DNA from: Vermamoeba vermiformis
Taxonomy: Eukaryota
DNA: 64,000 bases
NCBI GenBank assembly: GCA_045837725.1
Contig: JBEWZL010000257.1
Location: 124,001 to 188,000 of the forward strand
Direction: 5' to 3'
Part shown: positions 17,107 to 35,875 of the stretch, piece after piece
How the letters are laid out: every line of letters begins with the position of its first letter
Position numbering within the stretch: position 1 is the first letter of the stretch
The notes under the pieces: generated by a model
Seen by the model: only the letters and a program-made list of their open reading frames with translations
The model's database searches: none
Told to the model about the DNA's origin: nothing
Program-made: the position numbers and the translations under genes

Positions 17107-19234
17107 ATGAGAACACAAACTCTGTTTTTGATTGCAGTTCTTGCTGCTTTGTTTGTTGCCGGAGAGGCTCAGATCAGATTCCCCAAATATCGTGCCAGAC
17201 CCGCACCAAAAGGTACCTTAATAATTAACCTTTATTTATTAGCAATAAATTCGGGACAATTATAAAACAAATAAATATGATGTTGCTATATCATTTATCC
17301 ATAAAAATCTAATTTTATTCTTTTATTTTAGATGTGCCTTCTTATCAAACTAAGTGGTACTTGCAAACCCTCGATCATTTCAACTTCAACACTCAACCTT
17401 TGACTTTTTATCAACGCTACTTGGTTAACGGTAAGTTGTCCCATTGAATATTTCGCTGATCACGATCTAATCGCCTCCTAGATCAATACTACAAGCCTGG
17501 AGGTCCTCTCCTTTTCTACACTGGTAATGAAGGTGATGTTGTTATGTTCTGGAACAATACTGGCTTCATGTTTACTCTTGCTCAAGAGTTTGGTAAGCAC
17601 GTTAACAAGCCCTCTTTCTCGTCTAATTAATTCATAACTAAGGTGGCTACATTGTCTTTGCTGAACACCGTTACTACGGTCAAAGCTTGCCTTTTGGCCA
17701 AAACTCTTTCACCAACCAAAACATCAGCTACTTGACTGTTGAACAAGCTTTGGCTGATTATGCTCAATTGATCCCCGACTTGAAGTACGTGCATAATTTA
17801 GCTATACTATTACTAGTACTAATCACGTGCTATTAATAGGAAGTCCATCCCGGGCTTGGCTAACAGCAAAGTCATCTCATTCGGAGGTTCATACGGTGGC
17901 ATGTTGTCTGCTTGGTTCAGAATCAAGTACCCGCACATCGTTGATGTTAGTAGCATTCAAAATGCGCATTATTATATCAGCTTGTGACCCTTTGTAATAT
18001 TCAGGGTGCTCTTGCTGCTTCAGCTCCTGTGCTCCAATTCCAAGGCTTGGTTGACCCCGAGGCCTTCAGCAAGATTGTCACCGACGACTACACCAAGTAC
18101 GTGCTGCAATGATAGATGCGAGGCATCACTGACTCACTGTTGAATAGGGCTAACACTCAGTGCTCTGCTCGCATTCGCTCTGCTTACAAGCAAGTCAACG
18201 TTCTCAGCTCGAACCCTAGCGGCTACGCTGCTTTGACCAAGGCTTTCAGTCTCTGCAGCCCCATTCAAAATCAAAACGACGTTGCCAACTTGTGGAACTG
18301 GATCAACAACGCCATCATGTACGTCAATTACTTTTGATACATACACTCAGTTACTGACATGTTTCAACAGTTACATGGCCATGACTGACTATCCTTACCC
18401 CACTGGCTTCTTGCAGCCTTTGCCTGGCTGGCCCGTTGAAGTTGCTTGCGCTCAAGTGATGAAGGTAGGCGCTTATTATAGTGAAGTTTATGGCATGCAA
18501 CTAATGGCACCTCACGAAGTACTCAAACGTCTTGACTGGCTTGGCTCAAGCCGCTGGTGGTAAGTTGTCCTCGTGATCAATAAGTATTACACATTGTTCT
18601 CACACCCTCGCTAGTCTACTACAACACCACTGGTGATCAACAATGCTTCAACATCAACGAGGGTGCTAGCGCTGGTCTCGGTGATGCTTCGTGGAATTAC
18701 CAAGTACGTGAGACTAACGTGGCTATTCGTGTGATATTCACCGATTATATAGGCTTGCACTGAGCTGGTATTGCCCGTTTCTTCTGACGGTGTCAATGGT
18801 AGGTGACTTCTTGATGAATGAAAGCCACTCTAACGTGTCTGTGTTGCAGATATGTTCTTGAACCAAACTTGGGACATCAATGCCTACGCCATGGGCTGCT
18901 TCCAAAGCTACGGTGTGACCATCAGACCTCACTGGATTCCTTTGTGGAGCGGTGCTGACAAGCTCCAAGCTAGCTCCAACATCATCTTCAGCAACGGTGA
19001 GTTGGATCCTTGGCGCGGTGGAGGTATCACCAAGAACATTGGCTCGTCTATTTACGCTATCTACATCGAGAAAGGTGCTCACCACTTGGACTTGAGGTAC
19101 GTTATTTGGCACCGGAAAATGTTTTGACGTACTAACAAATCGTACCCAGATCACCTGACCCTCGTGATCCTCAAGGTGTCATTAAGGCCCGCAAGCAAGA
19201 GACTGAGATTATTCGCAGCTGGCTCAAGCAGTAA
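17107..19234 (+). CDS. PRCP: Lysosomal Pro-X carboxypeptidase (peptidase S28), multi-exon
   Basis: Signal peptide [19 protein letters not shown], then [22 protein letters not shown], catalytic [14 protein letters not shown] and GAHHLDLR. Confidence 0.93.
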
Positions 19235-19967
19235 ATTGAACAACTTAGCGAGGAATAAAGTTGTAATTTCAACAACGTGCGCAGGATATGATTGCTAGCC
19301 GCCTTATTGTTGAATTTGGTCAATATTATCAGGAACTAATTTAAAGGACTCGCGGGTACGATTAAAGGAGTATTATAAATTATTAGTTATATTAAGGGCT
19401 ACAAAAAGTACAATATTACAAGTTAAGAAGACGATGCAGAATGGTCACCATCAGAATCGGTAGAACATTTTCGGATTGAACTACAGCGAGCAAGGTTCTG
19501 CTGTTACTTATGTTTGAAAGTACTTATGCTGAAGTGCCTGTTTAGCACTAATTCTCTGGCGATAATCTTTTCTGAGTATGCGCTGCAACAGATCCGCTGC
19601 GTCCTTGTCCTCGACTTCGCGGCACAAAGCCCCACACGATGTCTTCGTCGGAGGCAATTTTCGAGCACTCAACTTCTACAAAGCATTAGATGTCAAAATC
19701 AAAGAGACATTCGTTTGGTAGAAGACAGTACGGCGATTATCAGGAGTGAGTCATTCAACGAACAAACGTTCGTTATCCACATCAAATTTCAAAGAACAAC
19801 CCAAAATATTCAATGGTAGAGTTTTCTGTGACTTTTGGTCGGGTCAAAGTTCGGTCAAGTTCGCCAAAAAAACAATTCTTTGCCCGATCTTGGCGAACGA
19901 GCGAACATAAAAGCCGCGAAAATGTCTCAAATTGCATCAATTCATAATAGCACAAAGCTTTTAGTAA

Positions 19968-22598
19968 ATGAACAAAAACAGTCGCAACATTCTAGATTCT
20001 TCTTTTCGTCTCGTGCGCGGAGCCGTCAGCTGGCTTCAAGAACTTCAAGGACCAATTTATACCATTGTTCTTTCAGGTGTGGGTCGATGCGGCAAATCAG
20101 AGATTGCGTCAAGTAAGCAAAATCTTTTTTTATTATTTTTTCAATAATAATTCAAAAAAAGCAATTCTTATCGAGTATTTTAAGTACCGTATTCAATGTA
20201 ACGTATTTCTGATTTTTACTTTTTCTCAGGACTCGCCGCACTCCTGGCTGGTGATCCGAATCTCGCACCTTTTCGCTCGGCGCCTGACTACGAACCAGTG
20301 ACAATTGGAGTACAAGCGTACCCTATTCGGCGTGAAGGAGGAGGCACATGGCTTATTCTCGACACCGAAGGCACGGACAATGGTTCGACTGAGATGCATT
20401 CACGCTTGCTTGCCTTGCTTGGCAGTCTGTCATCAGCTCTCCTGTTCGTAGACGCTCAAACATTTAATACGCGAGTAATCAGTGCTCTAGCCCGAGCCGC
20501 TGGTTACAGTTCGTTGGTAATGAACCAAAACCAGTGGCCCGAATTGTTTGTGGTAATCAACATGAACCCTCTTGGCGATCTTGCTGCCTCTGTCCTTGAG
20601 GATAATCTAAAGAGTAGACCGAATGATGCTCTAAACGTTGACCGCCAGGTATGTAAACTTACTTTGTATGACAATGGATTCTTACTTAACTTTAGACCGT
20701 TTCATTGGCTTATCAACATCGCAACCTATATTCTCTGCCTTACTTCGGTGCTACTTTTGGCGCTAAGATGAATGATGTCAAGAACGGCATCGTCAGCTCA
20801 CCTTTCCTCGTGCCTTTCACTGCTCAGGCTATCGTAGAGCGCATCAATGCTGTTCACGATATTATTGATAAGAATCCACAACTCTTCGGACAAGACAACG
20901 GCACTATTTACAGTTCTGTTATGGAGCACATTGTCCAACAGCATCGAAGGACTCTAATGGTGGAATATCAAGAACGGGCCGCACATCTTCCTCGAGATGG
21001 CCGCACTTCTGATGATGACATACGAAAACAGCACGGCGAAATTGTAGCTATCATTTTACAACGTTTTGATGACCTTACAGAGTCGTTAAACGTGGCTGAC
21101 ATAGCGGAGACTGAGCGTGGCAAGATGGTTGATGACACCGAAGCATCACTGCTAGGCATTCTCTTAGTCAATCAGGATCAGCGTCAAGTCACATCAATCA
21201 GTGAAGAAGTCAAAGAAGAGACTATCGGCGATGAGCGACATATAATGGCAGGAAGATCTGAGCGCACTGTCTGGTTCCACACCGATATTGACATTACTGT
21301 CCGGGTCTATCGCCTCAAAATCACTTACAGCCGTCGGCGCACAGTTTTCAAAAATGGTGTCGAAACTTTTACAGCATGGGTGGAGAAAGCTCGCAGCGAC
21401 ACACTCATCAGAGAATACACAGTCAGCTACACCGAAATGTCAACTTTGGGTCACATTACCTGCGGCGTTGTTAGCTTTGCAGTCACAGCTGGCTTGGCGA
21501 TAGTTACTGCAGGTAAGTTAATATGGTGTTGGTTCGAATTCGTTCGGAATTTGTTTTTAACGTTCCAAAATAGGAGCCAGTATACCTGCCGCTATTGCAA
21601 TTGGAGCGGCCACGGGAATTCCGGCAGGAATCAACGGCACTGTAGAAGCTAATGTCTCGTTTCCCATTGGCAATCCTGCGCCCCCAACGCAACCATCAAC
21701 TCAACCTAACACTGGTGAGCCAACTTCTGATCCGTCCGATGGACCCACCGCGCCGAAAAATGATAATACCAATCGCGCACCCAGCTCAACTCCAAGTCCA
21801 ACAAAGCCTAATGGCCCGCCTCCGAAAATTACGATGGACTTTGCAATGCTTGGATCACTGTCAAGCAATTTCGAGTCTGGAGGCAATCCTGGTGCTATCA
21901 ACAAAGACAAGAAAGATCCTGGGGGCTTCTCGTACGGCATCTATCAATTCGCTACGAAAAAAGGAAGTGCGACGGAGTTTTTGAATTGGCTGAATGCCCA
22001 CACAGATTACAAGCCAATGTACGATTCTTTGGTAAAGGATCAGGCCAAGCCAGGCACTTTGGACTTTAACAAGCACTGGGAGAGCTTAGCTAAGACTGAT
22101 GGACCTACTTTTGGCTATGCCCAGCACAAGTTTTGGGTCGAAACGGCTTTCATTCCCGCTTTGAGCAACATCTCTCAACAGGTGCCAATCATCAACTGGC
22201 TCAACGCTTCTCCTGTTCTTCATGACGTTTTGTTCTCGACAGTAGTTCAACACGGCAAGAGTGGAGCGTTAGATATTGTCAGCAAAGCAATTGGATCTTC
22301 AAGTGGTCCTTTATCCGAGAGTGATGTCATTAAGAAGATCTACGATGAACGTGGCCGGCGAGGTGAAAACGGACAATTGGTTCACTTTAAAAAATCTGCA
22401 ACAAAGACACAAGAGAATATCGCGAAAAGGTTTAGAGCCGAGAATCAACTGGGACAACAACGACTGAAAGAGTGGGAGACACATATCAACACGCACCCCA
22501 GTGAACCATTCAAGCCTAATTGGAATATTCCACACAAGCCTACCAAAGCTGTTCCCGACCCACAGCCAACGGACATTCAGCCAATTGTAGTGCCGTAA
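19968..22598 (+). CDS. GBP/atlastin-like GTPase + helical region + hydrophobic segment + Pro/Thr linker + VgrG3-C-like lysozyme-fold muramidase fusion. Exons 19968-20112, 20230-20648, 20696-21512, 21574-22598; about 801 aa
   Basis: G1 GVGRCGKS, G2 VTIGV, G3 LDTEG. All three GT-AG introns preserve frame. The C-terminal domain contains LGSLSSNFESGGNPGAI..DPGGFSYGIYQF, AQHKF, DVLFSTVVQHG, IKKIYDER and RFRAE. Confidence 0.85.
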
Positions 22599-22898: not shown

Positions 22899-25039
22899 TT
22901 ACAGTGGTAGTATTACATTCTCCATTGTATTTAACAATCGCTTCCACTTCGGAGTCAGGGAAATAGCTTTGTTTTTGTACACTTGCATCTTCACGCCGCG
23001 AATAGATATACCAATCATGCCCAGCACACAGGCGTAGCTCTTACTCAAGTCGTAATACCTCTTGCACTCGTCAAATGTAAAGTCTTTGACACCGTGCGAC
23101 ACGAGCGTGCTGTGATAGTCTTGCAGCGCTTCATCTTCAATCGCTGTGAGCAGTGCTGGATCTGCTTGAAAGTACAAGAAGAACGCGACGTCTATGAGAG
23201 GATTGCCGCGACACACGGACTGCCAGTCAATCATGTGCACTGTCTGCCAGTCGTTCGAGAACAACATGTTGCCGAGCCAATAGTCCCCGTGACACAGCGT
23301 GACAGGTCCTTTCATCAGCTCATCGAGCACACTTGGGAACACGAGGGCTAGTGTTGCACAGATGTCGTGTGCCTTGTCACTTACGACACCTTTCAAGTGC
23401 TGTGATACTTGTTTCCAGTTTGCGTTGTACTTAGAAGTCAAGGCGTCTTTAGTGGAGGGATCATTGAGTGCTGGCAGCCAATCATATTCGTTCAACTTCG
23501 GAGATTTCCACCACTCTGCATGTAACTTGGCAACGGCTCTCAGGGCCGACAGTGCAACGTTCTTAGTGAGTGCCTGTCTCTTGACATTCAAGAACTTCAA
23601 GTGCGACAAGTCCTCGAGCAACAAAGTACTGCGGCCAGTGCCCTCGTGAATTGTGGAGAAGAAGCACTTTGGCAGGGCAATGCTCTTGACTAGCGAGGCC
23701 ATTTGTTGATAAAAGTGCGGTTCTGCAATTGTTTTTTTGTTGTTCCACACGCCCAGCGACAATTTCAGCACGAAACTGGGCCACAGCTCTTCACCCAAAT
23801 CATTATTGTCCACATCCATAGTGTTATTATTATTGCTCTTCACGGTATTGAATCCATTCAATTTAAACACTTTGCCTCCGAATCCGACGCCCTTGCCAAT
23901 CTGTTCTGCGGTAAAATTTGTGACGTGAATGTGTGGCCAATGAGCTTTGATCATGTCGGTGAACACATCGGCAGTGATGTCACCAATGTCACTATACGGC
24001 CAAGAGTGGTCGCTGAGTGCTGTAACTGCACTGATGTTGCGTTTTTTTGCGTTGGAACTGGGACTCTTTGTTGGGGTTGATTTGCTCGAACTTGAAGCGG
24101 ATCTTGATTTCCTCGGACTGATGTCCATTTCTTCAATAGTAGTGTCGTTATTAATAGGAGTATTGGGAAGTACTGGGAGTGGTATCTTGGGCAGTTTGTG
24201 CCACAGTTTGCGCTGGAGAATATACTCGGCTACTGCGGGTATACCGACGAGCGAACTGAGTTCTTCGAGTGAAGCATCAGATCTAACCGCGCGTCGCACT
24301 GCCGTTGAAGACATGTTGTAAATGTGTTCTGATTTGACCACGTGCAGTCGTTCTGGGTGTGAAATCTTCTCTTTGACAGTTGCCAAGCCATGACACGTGT
24401 CATCTTCGCGATTGATCACTACACAGACGTGCATAAATTTCAGCAAAGTTTGAGGCGGAACATTAGCTCGGATGTCATTGCCAACGAGATAAAATATCTC
24501 GAACTTGTCCGGTTGCAGTAGGTGGTGCTTGGACTCTAAGAGCCGACGATGGAAATTGTGCAATAACAACCAAAACTGGCGATATTGACGCGGCAAGGTA
24601 CTTTCATAATCATCGACGAATACTATCACAAAGTGTCAATAAGTAGGGTTTGAATTGAGCGGATCTTACCCCAATCGTGACATGACACCGCTAACCGAGC
24701 CATGGCGAGGCGATGATTAAGGTCAATTGTCTCTTCTTTCAATTTTTTAGCTGCATATTTAGGTGAACTGGGCGACATGTAAGCGCCTATTACATCGTAA
24801 CCCTCTTTTAAGCCTTCAATATATTTTTTAGCTGTCGTCAACACATCCACATGTCCTACAACAAACAAGTTATTAGGCACCAAATTAACAATAATTATTA
24901 ATATTGAGCGACTTCGTTTACCTTTGTGGATCGGAGTAAAAGTGCCGTTGAAAAATAAAACAGCACCTTTTCTGCCCTCCTTCGGCGCCCTTAAGTGCGC
25001 TGTATATATTGCAGCTTCGTCTTGTGTCTCTTTCTCCAT
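22899..25039 (-). CDS. Cytidylyltransferase-family (NMNAT-like) nucleotidyltransferase fused to an APH/choline/ecdysteroid-kinase-like domain; 3 exons
   Basis: FNGTFTPIHKGH (HxGH), HRLAMARLA, LVGND and SSTAVR are followed in the same ORF by EPHFY, LLLEDL, CHGDYWLGNMLF and IDWQ. Confidence 0.82.
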
Positions 25040-25157
25040 TGCAAGATCGCGAGAAATGCTGCGAAATGAAGGGGAACAGAAAAATCACAGCAGATTATCA
25101 TTCAATAGACAGAAATTTCAAAGAACGCACGTGATCGGTATGCCTTGACGTGTTTAT

Positions 25158-27802: not shown

Positions 27803-29726
27803 ATGTCCAATATCCTTTTTAACCGCGATCTGGATCAGATTTACAAAAAATAGCCCCGAAATGCATCATAAATTGATTTATTCAAATTTCCTTCACTAAA
27901 AACTATTAAAAATATAGCTCTATATAAAATAATAATAGTCAATTCATATTGACCCCTCTATTATTTGCAAAACTTCCTTAACCACTTTTACGTCTGCCTG
28001 CTGGCCTCAGAATCTGCGTGCTCGAGAATACCCGCGAAGAGAACACCGTGGAATTCAGCATATACAATCCAGACCACACCTATGATTACGTTCTAGTCAA
28101 TAAAGCCACAGCGGTGAAGCAGATTCGCGAGCTGAGCAAGAAGAAGTACGATCTTTTCATCAATCTGTGCGACGGAGGTTGGGACACAGACTGTGCAGGC
28201 ATAGAGGTCATAACAGCTTTGGAACGATTCAATCTACCATTTACTGGCGCCAATTCAGCCTGTTACGAGCCCAGCAAGGAACACATGAAGATGATCGCGC
28301 TGATGAACGGCGTGGACACTCCTGCCTTCGTCTTTGCTTACGACGAGGATGATATAGCCAAAGCAGCACAGAATTTGAATTTTCCACTCATTGTCAAGCA
28401 CTTCAACGGTGCTAGCAGCATCGGAATGACGAAAGACTCGCGCGTTGAGAATCCAGAACAACTTCGCGTACAAGCATTGCGATTTATTGAAGAATATGGT
28501 GGTAAGTCTATAATATGCATATTTATCAATTGAAATCTTTCGGTTTGAATAACCGAATTGACTGAGATCCGTTGACACGTTAGTGCGATCCATAACTATA
28601 TTACGTTGCTTGAATATAAGCATAATTGCCTTGACTTATTAGCTTAATCAACTACCTATCCAATTCAAATTGTTTTTCGCCGTTACAAAGCAAAAACTTT
28701 CAATGTCATCACCGTTCATTTACGTTGAAACTCAAGATGAAAAGCAGTCGAATCACGAGGAATTAAACCGCAGTAGCGAAGATATTGCCAGGAATTTTGA
28801 AGATTTAACAACGCAAACGGAGTCTTCGGAGAATTGTTCGGGAAAGTAAATAGTTATCAAAACAACAACTGTTGGACAAATCAAATTATAATATAAACTA
28901 ATTATCACTACTAGGTGCATTGATCGAAGAGTTCATTGAAGGACGTGAGTTCACAGTGCTCGTGACTGAGAACCCCTTGGACGAAGAAGATCCGCTCACC
29001 TTCACGCCAGTTGAGTGTCGCTTCGGTGAGGGCGAGACCTTCAAGCACTACGACCTCAAGTGGACCGACTACGAAAAGATCTCGTGGTTCCCCGTAGACC
29101 CTGCTGCTCCCCTCACTGCCAAGCTCAAGTACGCCACTCAGCGCGTGTTCGTGGGTCTGCGCGCAGTGGGCTACGGGCGCTGCGACTTCAGAGTGGACAA
29201 CAACGGCCGCGTATACTTCTTAGAACTCAATCCCAACTGCGGTATATTCTATCCACTCGACGAGTACGGCAGTGCTGATTTCATTCTCAAAAATGATCCG
29301 ATTGGTCACCGCGGGTTCTTGGAGCACATCATGAAGTGCGCTCTTGAACGCAGCAAGAAGTTGAGCAAGAAATTTCAAGTCGGATTCTCGCGTCAAGCGG
29401 GTTACGTGTGGTACGCGAACAGAGACCTGCGCGAGGGCGAAGTGATCAGCAATTACGAAGAGGGCAATCACTTTGTCGTGAGCAAGACGCACGTTGACAC
29501 GGCCTGGTCCACGGCACAGCGCGAGTTCTTCAACAAGAATGCGCATCAAGTCGGCGATCAGATCTACCTCATGTGGTCCACACCCAATGGCAGCTCTGTG
29601 GACTGGTCCCCGTGTAGCCACAGCGACGAACAAGTCAATGCACGTTATGTCGGTCTCAAGGTCATAGCTACACGCGCTATTACTAAGGGCGAGGCTATTG
29701 TTGTGGCTAGCTCTGGCCGTCAATAG
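27803..29726 (+). CDS. D-Ala-D-Ala ligase-like ATP-grasp protein with a degenerate C-terminal SET-like domain; 3 exons
   Basis: LRICVL..YDLFINLCDG, LPFTGA, FPLIVKH..ASSIG, IEEFIEGREFTV, GYGRCDFR and FLELNPNCG, then YANRDLREGEVI..SHSD..VIATRAITKGE. The start MSSLPAG is obtained via an AT-AC intron. Confidence 0.82.
27810..27991 (+). other. U12-type AT-AC intron (first intron of the Ddl-like gene)
   Basis: 5' ATATCCTTTT, branch TTCCTTAAC at 27974-27982, 3' TTTTAC. Splicing links ATG TCC A to GT CTG in frame and removes an in-frame TAA at 27979. Confidence 0.87.
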
Positions 29727-32321: not shown

Positions 32322-34017
32322 TTATTCCACAGGAAACAGCGTGTTTATGTCCACACCCTCCACGTACGAGAATATCTTGACCCAGATCTCCAACGGAAAC
32401 ACCTCCAAGAACGCGTCTGGTCGCTGGATCAGCATTTTGAGGAACACAATTACACCATTGAAGCGATCTCTGTTCTGCTTCAGCCGACTGTCCACTAATG
32501 GGTCACTTTCACCGTTGATTGTCAGCTGGCACAGTGAATAGTTTGGCTTGAGCACATCACCACCGCGAAGAAAGTCCCATTCAGGGTGATATTGCTCTTT
32601 CATCTTGTCAATGTGCAGCACTCTCAACGCGTTGTTCCGTGCCAGTGCCATCAATACAGGCCTCATGGACAAGGAGGTCGGTGTGTCTCTCTTAATGTGC
32701 AGCACTCGCAGTGTAGTATTCAGGTCTAATAATGACGCCAATGCATTGAGTGCTGGCTCTTGCAAAGGAATGTTCCTCATTTGCAGATTGGTCAGCGACT
32801 TGTTGTCTGCCAGTTCTTGGAATAAGTACGGACAGTCTCGTGTGTCCACGGTGCAGTCATTAAGAATCAAGCGTTGCACATTTGATTTGTGCAGGAACGG
32901 CTTCAGTTTCTCGCCTCTGACTCTGTTCTTCGCGAGTGACAGCCAAGTGAGAGATTTGTTCAGCGTCAAGCCCTTGGCAATGTCATCAGTGCACACGTGA
33001 CAGTCAGCCAGCGACAACTTCTTCAACGTGTTCGTCTTGAGGACAGTTGTGAGCTCGTCTGTAACTGCTTTGTCGTTCAAATTGATTCCGTCGAGTGTGA
33101 GCGAGGTAATGGTCGTATTCTCTTTGAATATCTGCAATATCTTGACCATGTGTGGGGTGGTGAAGTTGGCCAATGAGAGATCGAGGTCAGTGATCGATGT
33201 GTTCAGCTTCAATATGTCATACAATGGGTCAGTCAGCGGATCAATGTCGCAGTAGTTGAATGTCAGGTGTTTGAGTCCCTCGTTGTATCTAATCATGCTC
33301 GCTAATGTACTGCTGGTGTCGGTTGAGAAGGTTAATGCATTGAATTTGCATTTGACAATGCCTCGGTGCTCTTTGAGTGCTTTGAATAGCGACAAGATTT
33401 TGCCCGAGGGTACTGCAGACCTAGTGAGTGGACCATCAAGCTCGAATGACGTGAGTGCCTTGCTCGTGGTCAGTGCACTCGCGAGCTCTTCAATGTCCTC
33501 GTCGGGCAGTGTGAATGGTATCACGAGTCTGCAGTCTTTCAACACTTCGTGGACTTTGAGTGCTTTTCCTATGTACGACAATCTGTTGGAACTTGCACCG
33601 AAGTGAATCGTAGTGATTGAATTGTTGATTTGGAGCGCCAAAATAACAAACTCCCATTGCTCCGGACTAATATTCGCGTGTAGCCAGAGCTCCTTGATCG
33701 TCGTGTTGCGTCCAATAGCCTCCATTAAATACCGATACTCCAGTAAGTTGTTTGGCACGTAAACTTGGCCTCTCTGAAAAGCAATACGATCAACACCATC
33801 AATGTCGAATTTTGTGGATGTGGTTACAAGCTTGTTGATTTCGGGAATCGATGTTGCTGTTGGCAATCCCTGCAAATAAATTATTAAAAATAATGCGACG
33901 GCTTTGACCCTACTTCTGTACTTGGCGTAACCGACGGATGGGTTTTGCTTTATCTAAAGCGAATTTTGCCAATCTAAAAGCTGCTTTAGCAACTACAGGA
34001 TCAGCTTTAGCTTCCAT
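32322..34017 (-). CDS. RNI-like LRR protein with C-terminal F-box-like motif, paralog 1
   Basis: NxxLxxLxL repeats (LKLNTSITDLDLS, LTLNKSLTWLSLAKN) and C-terminus FLEVFPLEIWVKIFSYV. Short first exon MEAKADPVVAKAAFRLAK is predicted; its donor is uncertain. Confidence 0.8.
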
Positions 34018-34197: not shown

Positions 34198-35875
34198 TCA
34201 CCCTGAAAATATTGCCCTAATGTTCACACCACCCACGTACGAAAATATTTTGGTCCAGATCTCCATTGGAAACACTGCAAAGAAGACATCTTGTCGCTGG
34301 ACCATCATCTTAAGGAATGCAATCACACCCACGTAGCGATCTCTGTTCGCCTTCAGTCTGCAGTCCACGCCGTAGTCATTCTGGTGGTTGATAGTCACCT
34401 TGCACAGCGCGTAGTTGGAGTCGAGAGTGTCGCGAATGTAGTCCCACTCTGGATGGTACTGCTCTCTTTGCTTTTCAATGTTCAGTGATTGCAGTGCGGT
34501 GTTCTCTTTCAGTGCCTGCAGCACGGGTTTTATGGGCAAAGAGGTCGCGGTGCCGCGTTTGAAGTGCAGCACGCGCAGAGTGTTGTTCTCGCGCAACATG
34601 TTCGCCAGGGCCGCGAGTGCGATGTCGAACAAACCAACATTTCTGATTCTTAGATTTGTCAGCGAGGTGTTGTGCGTCAGTCCCTCAAAGATGTGTCCCC
34701 AAACCTCTTGATTGACTTGGCACTCATCGAGGATCAAGTGCCGCACACTTAAAGTTTGCAACACTGGCTTGAGATCCTGCTTTTGAATCGTATTGTTGGC
34801 CAGAGACAGCCGAGTGAGTGACGTGTTCTGCGCCAACCCCTGCACAATATCGTTGACGCACAGATTACAGCGGCTGAGCGACAGTCTCTGCAACTTGTTG
34901 TTTGCGAGCACCTTATTTAGCTCTTCTGTGACCGACCTGTCACTCATTTTAATGCAACTAAGATCTAATGAGGTAATGGTCGTATTTTCTTGGAATATCT
35001 GCAATATCTTGACCATGTGTGGGGTGGTGAAGTTGGCCAATGAGAGATCGAGGTCAGTGATCGATGTGTTCAGCTTCAATATGTCATACAATGGGTCAGT
35101 CAGCGGATCAATGTCGCAGTAGTTGAATGTCAGGTGTTTCAGTCCCTCGTTGTATCTAATCATGCTTGCTAATGAGTGCCCTGTATCAGCTGAAAACACC
35201 ATGGAAGAGAATCTGCACTTGACAATGCCTCGGTGCTCTCCGAGTGCATTGAGTAGCGGTAAGATTTTGCCTGGTGGCATCGCAGGCCTATCGAATGGAC
35301 CACGAAGCTCGAATGACGTGAGTGCCTTGCTCGTGGCCAGTGCACTCGCGAGCTCTTCCACTTCATTGTCTTGCGCATTCTCTTCCAGTACAAAGCAGCC
35401 TGTAGTCAACTTTGCGTGTGCTTTGACTGCTCTGCCGATGTATGCCATGTTATTGGAACTGAAGTATATCGTATCAATAGAAGAGTTGCGTTTGAGGGCC
35501 TTGATGATGAACTCCCACTGCTCGGGAGTCGCATCACTATGTAAAAACAGCTGCTTGATCGATGTACTGCGCCCAATCGCTTCCATTAGATAGCGGAATG
35601 TTAATAAATTGGTCGGTAGGTCTACATATCCATCCAAAAACGTTATATCTCCAACTTCCTCAATGTCGAATTCGACCGCTTTAGATGCAGCAATAAATTT
35701 GTTGATTTCAAAATTTGACTTTGCTATCGGCAATTTCTATACTGTAAATTAGAAAAATTTAAAGAGATATTTGGGTTAATACTTTTTTGTTTAAATCCGT
35801 TCGTGGCGACTGATCCAGGGCAATTTTGGCCAATTTGAAGGCCGCAGTAGCAACCGCGCTATTATTTTCATTCAT
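34198..35875 (-). CDS. RNI-like LRR protein with C-terminal F-box-like motif, paralog 2 (tandem duplicate)
   Basis: Colinear with paralog 1. C-terminus FFAVFPMEIWTKIFSYV; first exon MNENNSAVATAAFKLAK. Confidence 0.8.

Follow-up and report, generated by a model that had tools for sequence, protein, structure and literature searches.

A spliced Vermamoeba vermiformis gene encoding a putative GBP-like GTPase, a predicted membrane anchor and a C-terminal domain of the bacterial VgrG3-C hydrolase family

We describe here a gene at positions 19968–22598 (+ strand) of a 64,000-nucleotide stretch of Vermamoeba vermiformis DNA (assembly GCA_045837725.1, contig JBEWZL010000257.1, positions 124,001–188,000; the whole of this stretch is referred to as the window). 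Taken as a single statement, which we regard as evenly balanced between being right and being wrong, our interpretation is that this is an expressed four-exon gene encoding a membrane-anchored protein of 801 residues, in which a cytosolic clustering or tethering GTPase would be joined to a hydrolase facing the phagosome lumen or the cell surface. At least part of the stretch is contained in 15 of the 20 listed RNA runs, from nine studies, and the contigs used below are those of a root metatranscriptome (X1) and those of a second run (X2); two raw-read runs, X18 and X19, gave no matching read and therefore carry no weight either way. The features of the gene are as follows.

19895–19967 (+): 5′ untranslated region, at least this long; X2 record 6 spans 19895–20045.
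19968–20112 (+): exon 1, with the start codon and the P-loop GVGRCGKS (residues 37–44, 20076–20099); X1 record 1 and X2 record 7 continue into exon 2.
20113–20229 (+): intron 1, 117 nt, GT..AG, 22% G+C, with four in-frame stops; removed in RNA contigs of two runs.
20230–20648 (+): exon 2, the core of the putative G domain, with VTIGV, DTEG (residues 93–96, 20361–20372) and LLALLGSLSSALLF.
20649–20695 (+): intron 2, 47 nt, GTATGT..TAG, placed from a single acceptor and the better of two in-frame donors.
20696–21512 (+): exon 3, encoding a middle region without a recognised family (residues 189–437) and the first half of the hydrophobic stretch.
21443–21632 (+): hydrophobic stretch by Kyte-Doolittle values, a predicted membrane anchor of one span or a hairpin (residues 438–480), with intron 3 inside it.
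21513–21573 (+): intron 3, 61 nt, GTAAGT..TAG, removed in X2 record 10.
21574–22598 (+): exon 4, encoding the rest of the hydrophobic stretch, a Pro/Thr/Ser linker (about 21648–21842), the muramidase domain and a Pro-rich tail, and ending in the stop codon.
21849–22442 (+): VgrG3-like C-terminal glycoside hydrolase domain (residues 553–750; PF21277), with candidate catalytic residues Glu561 (21873–21875) and Asp575 (21915–21917).

When spliced, the four exons give 2406 nt, corresponding to 801 codons and a stop, with the frame open throughout and a stop codon immediately 5′ of the ATG at 19968. The introns have donors GTAAGC, GTATGT and GTAAGT and acceptors CAG, TAG and TAG, in that order, and are poorer in G+C (22–33%) than the exons (46–52%). 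An initial annotation of the window had proposed three GT-AG introns joining the region in frame into one protein of about 801 residues; the sequence agrees with these coordinates and with the frame, every motif that it quoted is found in the translation, and the muramidase does lie wholly within the intronless last exon. We note that the transcribed 5′ region also contains an upstream ATG at 19922 with an A at −3, from which a frame of 71 codons runs along the spliced mRNA; this frame overlaps the main start out of frame and may damp translation of the main protein.

The spliced form is represented in RNA. The joint 20112>20230, at which the 117 nt of intron 1 are skipped between GT and AG, is present in contigs of both X1 and X2, and RNA contig depth in the intron 1 bin is 0.3–0.5 compared to 6–10 in the flanking exons. 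At intron 3, the 781-nt X2 record 10 contains the joint 21510>21572 (equivalent to 21512/21574, with the cut position shifted by 2), with 231 nt to its left and 550 nt to its right, and extends as far as 22121, within the muramidase; X1 has a loose end at 21572 whose 16 letters are those of the end of exon 3. Contig depth is zero before 19807 and after 22588. The spliced form thus occurs as RNA in two independent samples, with the anchor exon joined to the muramidase exon, and the mapping across the 21512/21574 junction that the initial annotation proposed as a check is provided by the spliced X2 contig. In a further X2 contig, the 90 letters ahead of 19981 do not resemble the window. If its match begins at 19981, this contig has by eye an ATG at the position of the window's start codon and differs at codons 2–5, and it would be a diverged allele or a second copy with a different 5′ region.

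The C-terminal domain is assigned by several lines of evidence. First, the exon 4 translation matches PF21277 (T6SS_VgrG3-like_C, a type VI secretion system family by name) in Pfam at E 1.7e-31 with 110.1 bits (cut-off 27), over model positions 1–182 of 183. Secondly, a phmmer search of the PDB returns the VgrG3C chains 4noo_A (E 1.2e-9) and 4nso_A. Thirdly, an AlphaFold2 model of the domain has a predicted local distance difference test score (pLDDT) of 89.6 and a predicted template-modelling score of 0.84, the alignment for it combining the window's own 250-residue library fragment, P0001, with the 50 among 150 listed relatives that do not exceed 350 residues. Foldseek ranks the same two chains first and second for this model (4noo_A, E 6.4e-7, template-modelling score by target 0.77; 4nso_A, E 1.6e-6, 0.80), followed at ranks 3–11 by glycoside hydrolase family 46 (GH46) chitosanases at E 3e-4 to 2e-3, and then by GH80 chitosanases and pesticin at non-significant E-values. 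Glu561 of the FES motif and Asp575 ahead of GGFSYGIYQF (E10 and D24 of P0001) are each retained in at least 90% of the 51 aligned sequences and align with VgrG3C in the phmmer comparison; by analogy with the GH46 enzymes they are the presumed catalytic pair. Sequence and predicted fold both place the domain in the bacterial VgrG3-C (PF21277) hydrolase family, with its activity predicted. A lysozyme-type hydrolase of the VgrG3-C kind, with both acidic residues in place, is what the initial annotation had suggested, and the HMMER and Foldseek checks proposed there for this domain return what it expected.

The relatives of this domain are bacterial. An exhaustive HMMER search finds 2825 proteins at E≤1e-3, of which 1372 reach 1e-10 and 21 reach 1e-30; the best match is P0001 itself, and the next are 37–43% identical. 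Among the 18 non-self relatives looked up, all names that include an organism are bacterial (Myxococcaceae, Archangiaceae and Archangium in one cluster, then Archangium sp. and Microcoleus sp.), the rest being unnamed or named for function only, such as 'LysM repeat protein'. All ten of the relatives scanned carry PF21277, accompanied by LysM in three, PG_binding_1 in five, Peptidase_C39_2 in two and DUF4214 in two. A scan of one genome per prokaryote species confirmed at least 521 loci among the 590 pattern matches listed, and the five best loci among those matches are from Myxococcaceae or Archangiaceae (E 2e-43 to 2e-40; the sixth is at 8e-36). The window also encodes an HSP70, a Cdc48-type AAA ATPase, an HMG-CoA reductase, a purple acid phosphatase, an S28 peptidase and a kinase fragment; the HSP70 is 97% identical to an unnamed JGI protein, and the named proteins closest to it are from Physarum (76%), Planoprotostelium (73%) and plants (72–74%). 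The G+C content at third codon positions of the muramidase domain (0.48) is close to that of exon 2 (0.47) and exon 3 (0.45). Because the nearest relatives are bacterial and the base composition matches that of the host gene, the muramidase domain is an old acquisition from bacteria and the gene is a resident, long ameliorated one, and not contamination. The horizontal acquisition proposed in the initial annotation is therefore upheld.

The donor is a separate matter. In a tree of the window domain and 72 of 80 loci (eight were dropped, their best segments being short or containing stops), the window domain lies on a long branch (1.54). The Myxococcota were considered as the donor lineage and are nearest both by E-value and by path length, yet no supported clade includes the window domain, and therefore no donor lineage is assigned. 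The phylogeny against bacteria that the initial annotation called for thus gives a nearest group by path and no supported sister group. Among the bacterial relatives themselves, P0019 and P0138 appear, by eye, to have a PAAR-type module at the N-terminus and may be true type VI effectors, while most of the close relatives have LysM or PG_binding_1 in that place.

The N-terminal part contains an intact G1 motif, GVGRCGKS, and an intact G3 motif, DTEG, which is followed by a hydrophobic helix. In a protein-language-model Atlas the neighbours of exon 2 are GBP/RHD3 clusters, the top match being at 0.94 with 194 of 256 features in common (recognition 3099), and all ten of the best family-bearing matches are in the GBP family or clan (GBP/RHD3/VLIG-type). 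A profile search of the PDB, using a profile built from the exon 1–intron 1–exon 2 read-through and two exon pieces with all 227 columns kept, including those of the intron, has GBP2 (6vkj_A) as the only sequence at E≤10, over the DTEG motif and the LSS helix that follows, at a non-significant E of 1.4. With ESMFold2, when GTP and Mg are included, the exon 1 peptide is positioned against the exon 2 chain with an interface score (ipSAE) of 0.41 compared to 0.01 for the best of three controls, classed as 'weak support': the mark applied is passed by 51 of 78 solved complexes and two of 108 mismatched pairs, five of the 78 and all four passing mismatches lie at or below 0.60, and a job of this kind differs from those of the tool's calibration set. 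The partner pLDDT is 68–69 and the runs agree in at least 96% of contacts. We consider it likely from these patterns that the N-terminal 190–290 residues make up a GBP/atlastin/RHD3-type P-loop GTPase domain, and the narrower designation 'GBP-like', for which the motifs, the language-model neighbours and the one non-significant GBP2 match are the grounds, is moderately supported.

Between these two parts, residues 438–480 (43 residues) have Kyte-Doolittle values of 1.5–2.0 in 19-residue windows and form the only strongly hydrophobic stretch besides a short one in the G domain; the N-terminus is without a hydrophobic signal. By eye, Arg and Lys are common before the stretch, and Asp and Glu follow it, ahead of a Pro/Thr/Ser stalk (17 Pro, nine Thr and eight Ser in the 70 residues 486–555). 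A Gly-Ala-Ser-x-Pro break lies near the middle. By a hydrophobicity scale, the first half would presumably be a borderline span, and the second half, which is Ala/Gly/Pro-rich and weakly hydrophobic, would not insert alone, and for this reason the evidence leans towards a single span rather than a hairpin. A cytosolic N-terminus is favoured because the N-terminal domain is large and folded and the N-terminal side of the stretch is positive; from this positive side, a single span and the lack of a signal peptide it would follow that the muramidase lies across the membrane from the GTPase. Sequons, of which there are four after the anchor and two before it, are too few to weigh.

A different arrangement is that of the initial annotation, in which both halves are cytosolic, with the anchor a hairpin or peripheral, and the GBP-like module coats bacteria or their vacuoles while the muramidase lyses them. 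The Atlas neighbours fit this model, and the 43 residues with their central break could form two short helices like the hairpin of atlastins, as described in PMC8565484, which would place the hydrolase in the cytosol and so tells against the transmembrane arrangement. However, such a hydrolase would have to cross the outer membrane of Gram-negative prey, and Pro/Thr/Ser stalks are usually extracytosolic, in addition to the poor insertion expected of the second half of the stretch. The 'coat and lyse' model, which took no account of what the hydrophobic stretch between the halves implies, is unsupported as it was stated, and we regard an all-cytosolic protein as doubtful.

Several results count against the GTPase interpretation of the N-terminal part, and against the GBP-like N-terminus of the initial annotation, for which the motifs and Atlas neighbours stand but a family match does not. 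Exons 1–3 searched separately match no family in Pfam (E≤1) or NCBIfam, RHD3_GTPase included in the case of Pfam, and no Pfam family is matched at E≤10 by the exon 1–intron 1–exon 2 read-through with X at its four stops; these tests used single exons and the read-through in place of the spliced protein and are weaker than they appear. A phmmer search of the PDB with exon 2 and with the read-through finds nothing, the GBP2 match falls short of significance, and AlphaFold2 without an alignment gives a pLDDT of 37 on the read-through, which is unusable as evidence of a fold. The G4 motif of GBPs is (T/A)LRD, and by eye no RD-type motif is seen in the expected strand, which in our own alignment is VINMN. 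Nor does the middle region help: exon 3 (residues 189–437) has no match in Pfam, NCBIfam or the Atlas and no significant one in the PDB, and the C-terminal helical GBP_C domain is not matched by exon 3 in Pfam, the Atlas or the PDB. Two PDB candidates were rejected, the FAT domain of PTK2B for exon 3 (E 1.5, non-significant) and six designer pentatricopeptide-repeat proteins for exon 1, an artefact of repeated 17-residue matches with individual E-values of at least 780. Finally, all seven single-letter differences between the window and the X1 and X2 contigs (at 20016, 20037, 20286, 20289, 20338, 20777 and 22453) are nonsynonymous (R17S, Q24K, D68N, Y69H, G85E, V216I and G754A), in a small sample in which some contigs have a depth below 5, and five of the seven fall within residues 17–85 of the G domain; this pattern could reflect diversifying selection or relaxed constraint.

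Conservation likewise offers the N-terminal part no backing, as no relatives of it were found. A homologue search with exons 2 and 3, restricted to longer proteins and so liable to miss relatives with fragmentary gene calls, gave nothing; in a phmmer comparison of residues 1–470 with 164 proteins the lowest E is 1, the N-terminal part has no counterpart in any of the 150 best muramidase relatives, and there is no paralogue of the gene within the 64-kb window. Pattern matches were not confirmed in metagenome scans (0 of 61 for exon 3 and 0 of 163 for P0001) or in viral scans (0 of two for exon 2 and 0 of three for exon 3). This absence of relatives of the N-terminal part and of the fusion is weak evidence, because the gene calls of the library are prokaryote-style (as with the 250-residue P0001) and would fragment spliced eukaryotic relatives. 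The literature searched has no report of a GTPase-PF21277 architecture or of any eukaryotic PF21277 protein, in keeping with the initial annotation, which knew of no description of the architecture.

These observations raise an alternative in which the N-terminal part is not a working GBP-type GTPase and belongs instead to a different P-loop class, or serves as a degenerate scaffold whose role is only to anchor or oligomerise the enzyme. The unmatched families, the G4 motif not seen and the concentration of between-sample differences in residues 17–85 all fit such a degenerate or divergent module. Set against this, the GxxxxGKS and DTEG motifs are intact, the hydrophobic helix that follows aligns with GBP2, and the Atlas neighbours are all of the GBP/RHD3/VLIG type; we think this alternative improbable, and retain a GTPase domain as the likely identity of the N-terminal part.

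The substrate of the C-terminal domain can be weighed in a similar manner. The fold is common to chitosanases, which counts against a confident assignment to peptidoglycan, the predicted substrate. The enzyme might instead target chitosan, chitin or a different glycan, such as one of fungal walls: GH46 chitosanases are the next-best folds after VgrG3C, the relative P0002 has a weak GH46 match in Pfam, and RNA of the gene was recovered from a root metatranscriptome, a setting in which fungi are abundant. However, eight of the ten closest relatives scanned carry LysM or PG_binding_1, and the solved family member, VgrG3 of strain N16961, is described in PMC9927483 as cell-wall-targeting, with a lysozyme-like domain. 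A glycan other than peptidoglycan is distinctly unlikely to be the target, in our estimation, and we treat the domain below as a putative muramidase.

A final question is whether the two halves belong to one gene. No contig of X1 or X2 covers 20612–20711, and the splice at intron 2 is therefore not seen in RNA, a gap that tells against a single transcript and would suit an arrangement in which exons 1–2 encode a small GTPase and exons 3–4, read from an internal Met, a separate anchored muramidase. Within this interval, though, 20695 is the sole acceptor and just two donors, 20649 (GTATGT) and 20637 (GTTGAC), are in frame, both of which keep it open; the intron is thus a consensus in-frame one with a single acceptor, exon 3 is open from that acceptor on, the same runs give continuous depth on either side, and no pile-ups of starts or ends are reported, though contigs cannot reveal such. 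Two genes are accordingly very improbable. An assembly chimera or bacterial contamination, the former having been named in the initial annotation as a circumstance that would overturn the fusion, has a negligible probability, being contradicted by the spliced RNA contig that connects exon 3 to the muramidase exon, by the host-like composition and by the eukaryotic genes flanking on both sides.

Comparison to known systems places the parts of the protein in several contexts. With the C-terminus of Vibrio cholerae VgrG3 (4NOO and 4NSO) the likeness is that of the domain family, by hidden Markov model, sequence and predicted fold, together with the Glu and Asp residues, although the identity in the structural alignment is only 23–24% and the studied gene is spliced, eukaryotic and encodes the domain behind a GTPase-like part and a predicted membrane anchor. 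No VgrG spike or PAAR module is found in the N-terminal part with Pfam or NCBIfam; what is held in common with VgrG3 is the domain family and not the type VI secretion system. The closest sequences are secreted PF21277 hydrolases from soil bacteria, Myxococcota among them, in which the domain is linked to LysM or PG_binding_1; they also have Pro/Thr/Ala low-complexity linkers before the domain, but here an anchor and a GTPase-like part take the place of the peptidoglycan-binding modules. Animal GBP1–7 are similar in the P-loop, in the DTEG motif and following helix (which align with GBP2) and as Atlas neighbours; they differ in that the studied protein has no Pfam GBP or GBP_C match, no CaaX end and no G4 RD motif seen by eye, and has an integral hydrophobic anchor and an attached enzyme domain.

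The order of parts is closer to that of the tethering GTPases. According to one report (PMC8565484), the Dictyostelium GBP homologue Gnbp consists of a G domain, a long middle free of motifs and a C-terminal membrane segment, is present in macropinosome and Legionella-vacuole proteomes, and has been proposed to act in atlastin-like tethering. Gnbp, compared here by that description, and atlastin, Sey1 and RHD3 have the same order as the ancestral part of the studied protein, namely a G domain, a middle region and an anchor near the end. In the studied protein, in contrast, about 320 residues of stalk and hydrolase lie beyond the anchor, such that these two parts stand where atlastin, Sey1 and RHD3 have a cytosolic tail, and the 43-residue stretch fits one or two spans.

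Acquisition of such enzymes by eukaryotes has precedents. The NlpC/P60 proteins of Trichomonas and the products of the tick dae genes are reportedly peptidoglycan hydrolases acquired from bacteria. Protist peptidoglycan hydrolases of bacterial origin also include the GH19 and GH25 enzymes of Trichomonas, as given in PMC12612818. The hydrolases of Trichomonas and ticks are stand-alone, secreted and of other families, and what they have in common with the studied gene is the domestication of a bacterial cell-wall hydrolase by a eukaryote.

Other features in the surroundings of the gene are noted briefly. About 0.8 kb upstream is an exon of a serine carboxypeptidase S28, a lysosomal-type peptidase family (18834–19127, +). 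The convergent neighbour is a long ORF at 22902–25084 (−) with an ecdysteroid-kinase-like/APH phosphotransferase domain; another ORF, weakly matching a cytidylyltransferase-like family, lies ahead of it on that strand. Further to the right, 27982–28530 and 28902–29723 (+) have D-Ala-D-Ala ligase C-terminal/ATP-grasp matches (E 6.9e-4 and 1.2e-11), a peptidoglycan-synthesis-type enzyme and possibly another bacterial acquisition, and two adjacent long ORFs of 543 and 512 residues (32325–33953 and 34201–35736, −) contain common sequence blocks by eye and match no Pfam family.

The mode of action that we favour for the protein is as follows. The hydrophobic stretch at residues 438–480 would act as a signal anchor, with the GTPase and the middle region remaining cytosolic and the Pro/Thr/Ser stalk and hydrolase pointing into an endocytic or phagosomal lumen or out from the cell surface, where the hydrolase would attack the peptidoglycan of bacteria that have been engulfed or are close by. 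Meanwhile, GTP-driven pairing of G domains in the cytosol could cluster the enzyme, or could tether and fuse the carrier membrane, much as has been suggested for Gnbp. As to its origin, a tail-anchored GBP-like gene has probably captured a downstream bacterial hydrolase gene by means of a new intron inside the anchor. The fullest form of this proposal, in which a single polypeptide crosses the phagosomal or surface membrane with a GTP-responsive GBP/atlastin-type GTPase inside and a captured muramidase digesting the prey wall outside, the two having been joined via the anchor intron of a tail-anchored GBP-like ancestor, is offered tentatively, and we think it rather unlikely to hold in full.

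GBP-type GTPases act against intracellular bacteria, and eukaryotes domesticate bacterial cell-wall hydrolases. If the proposal is true, a GBP-type antibacterial defence (or feeding) system of a protist would be hard-wired to a lytic effector, and these two so far separate stories would be joined in one expressed protein with the membrane between them. Within the reach of the literature searched, the VgrG3-C family would gain its first eukaryotic member. The gene would also illustrate clearly how a domain acquired horizontally can be attached to a host gene by way of a new intron, and it makes it possible to ask directly in what way an antibacterial enzyme could be steered by an ancient large GTPase.

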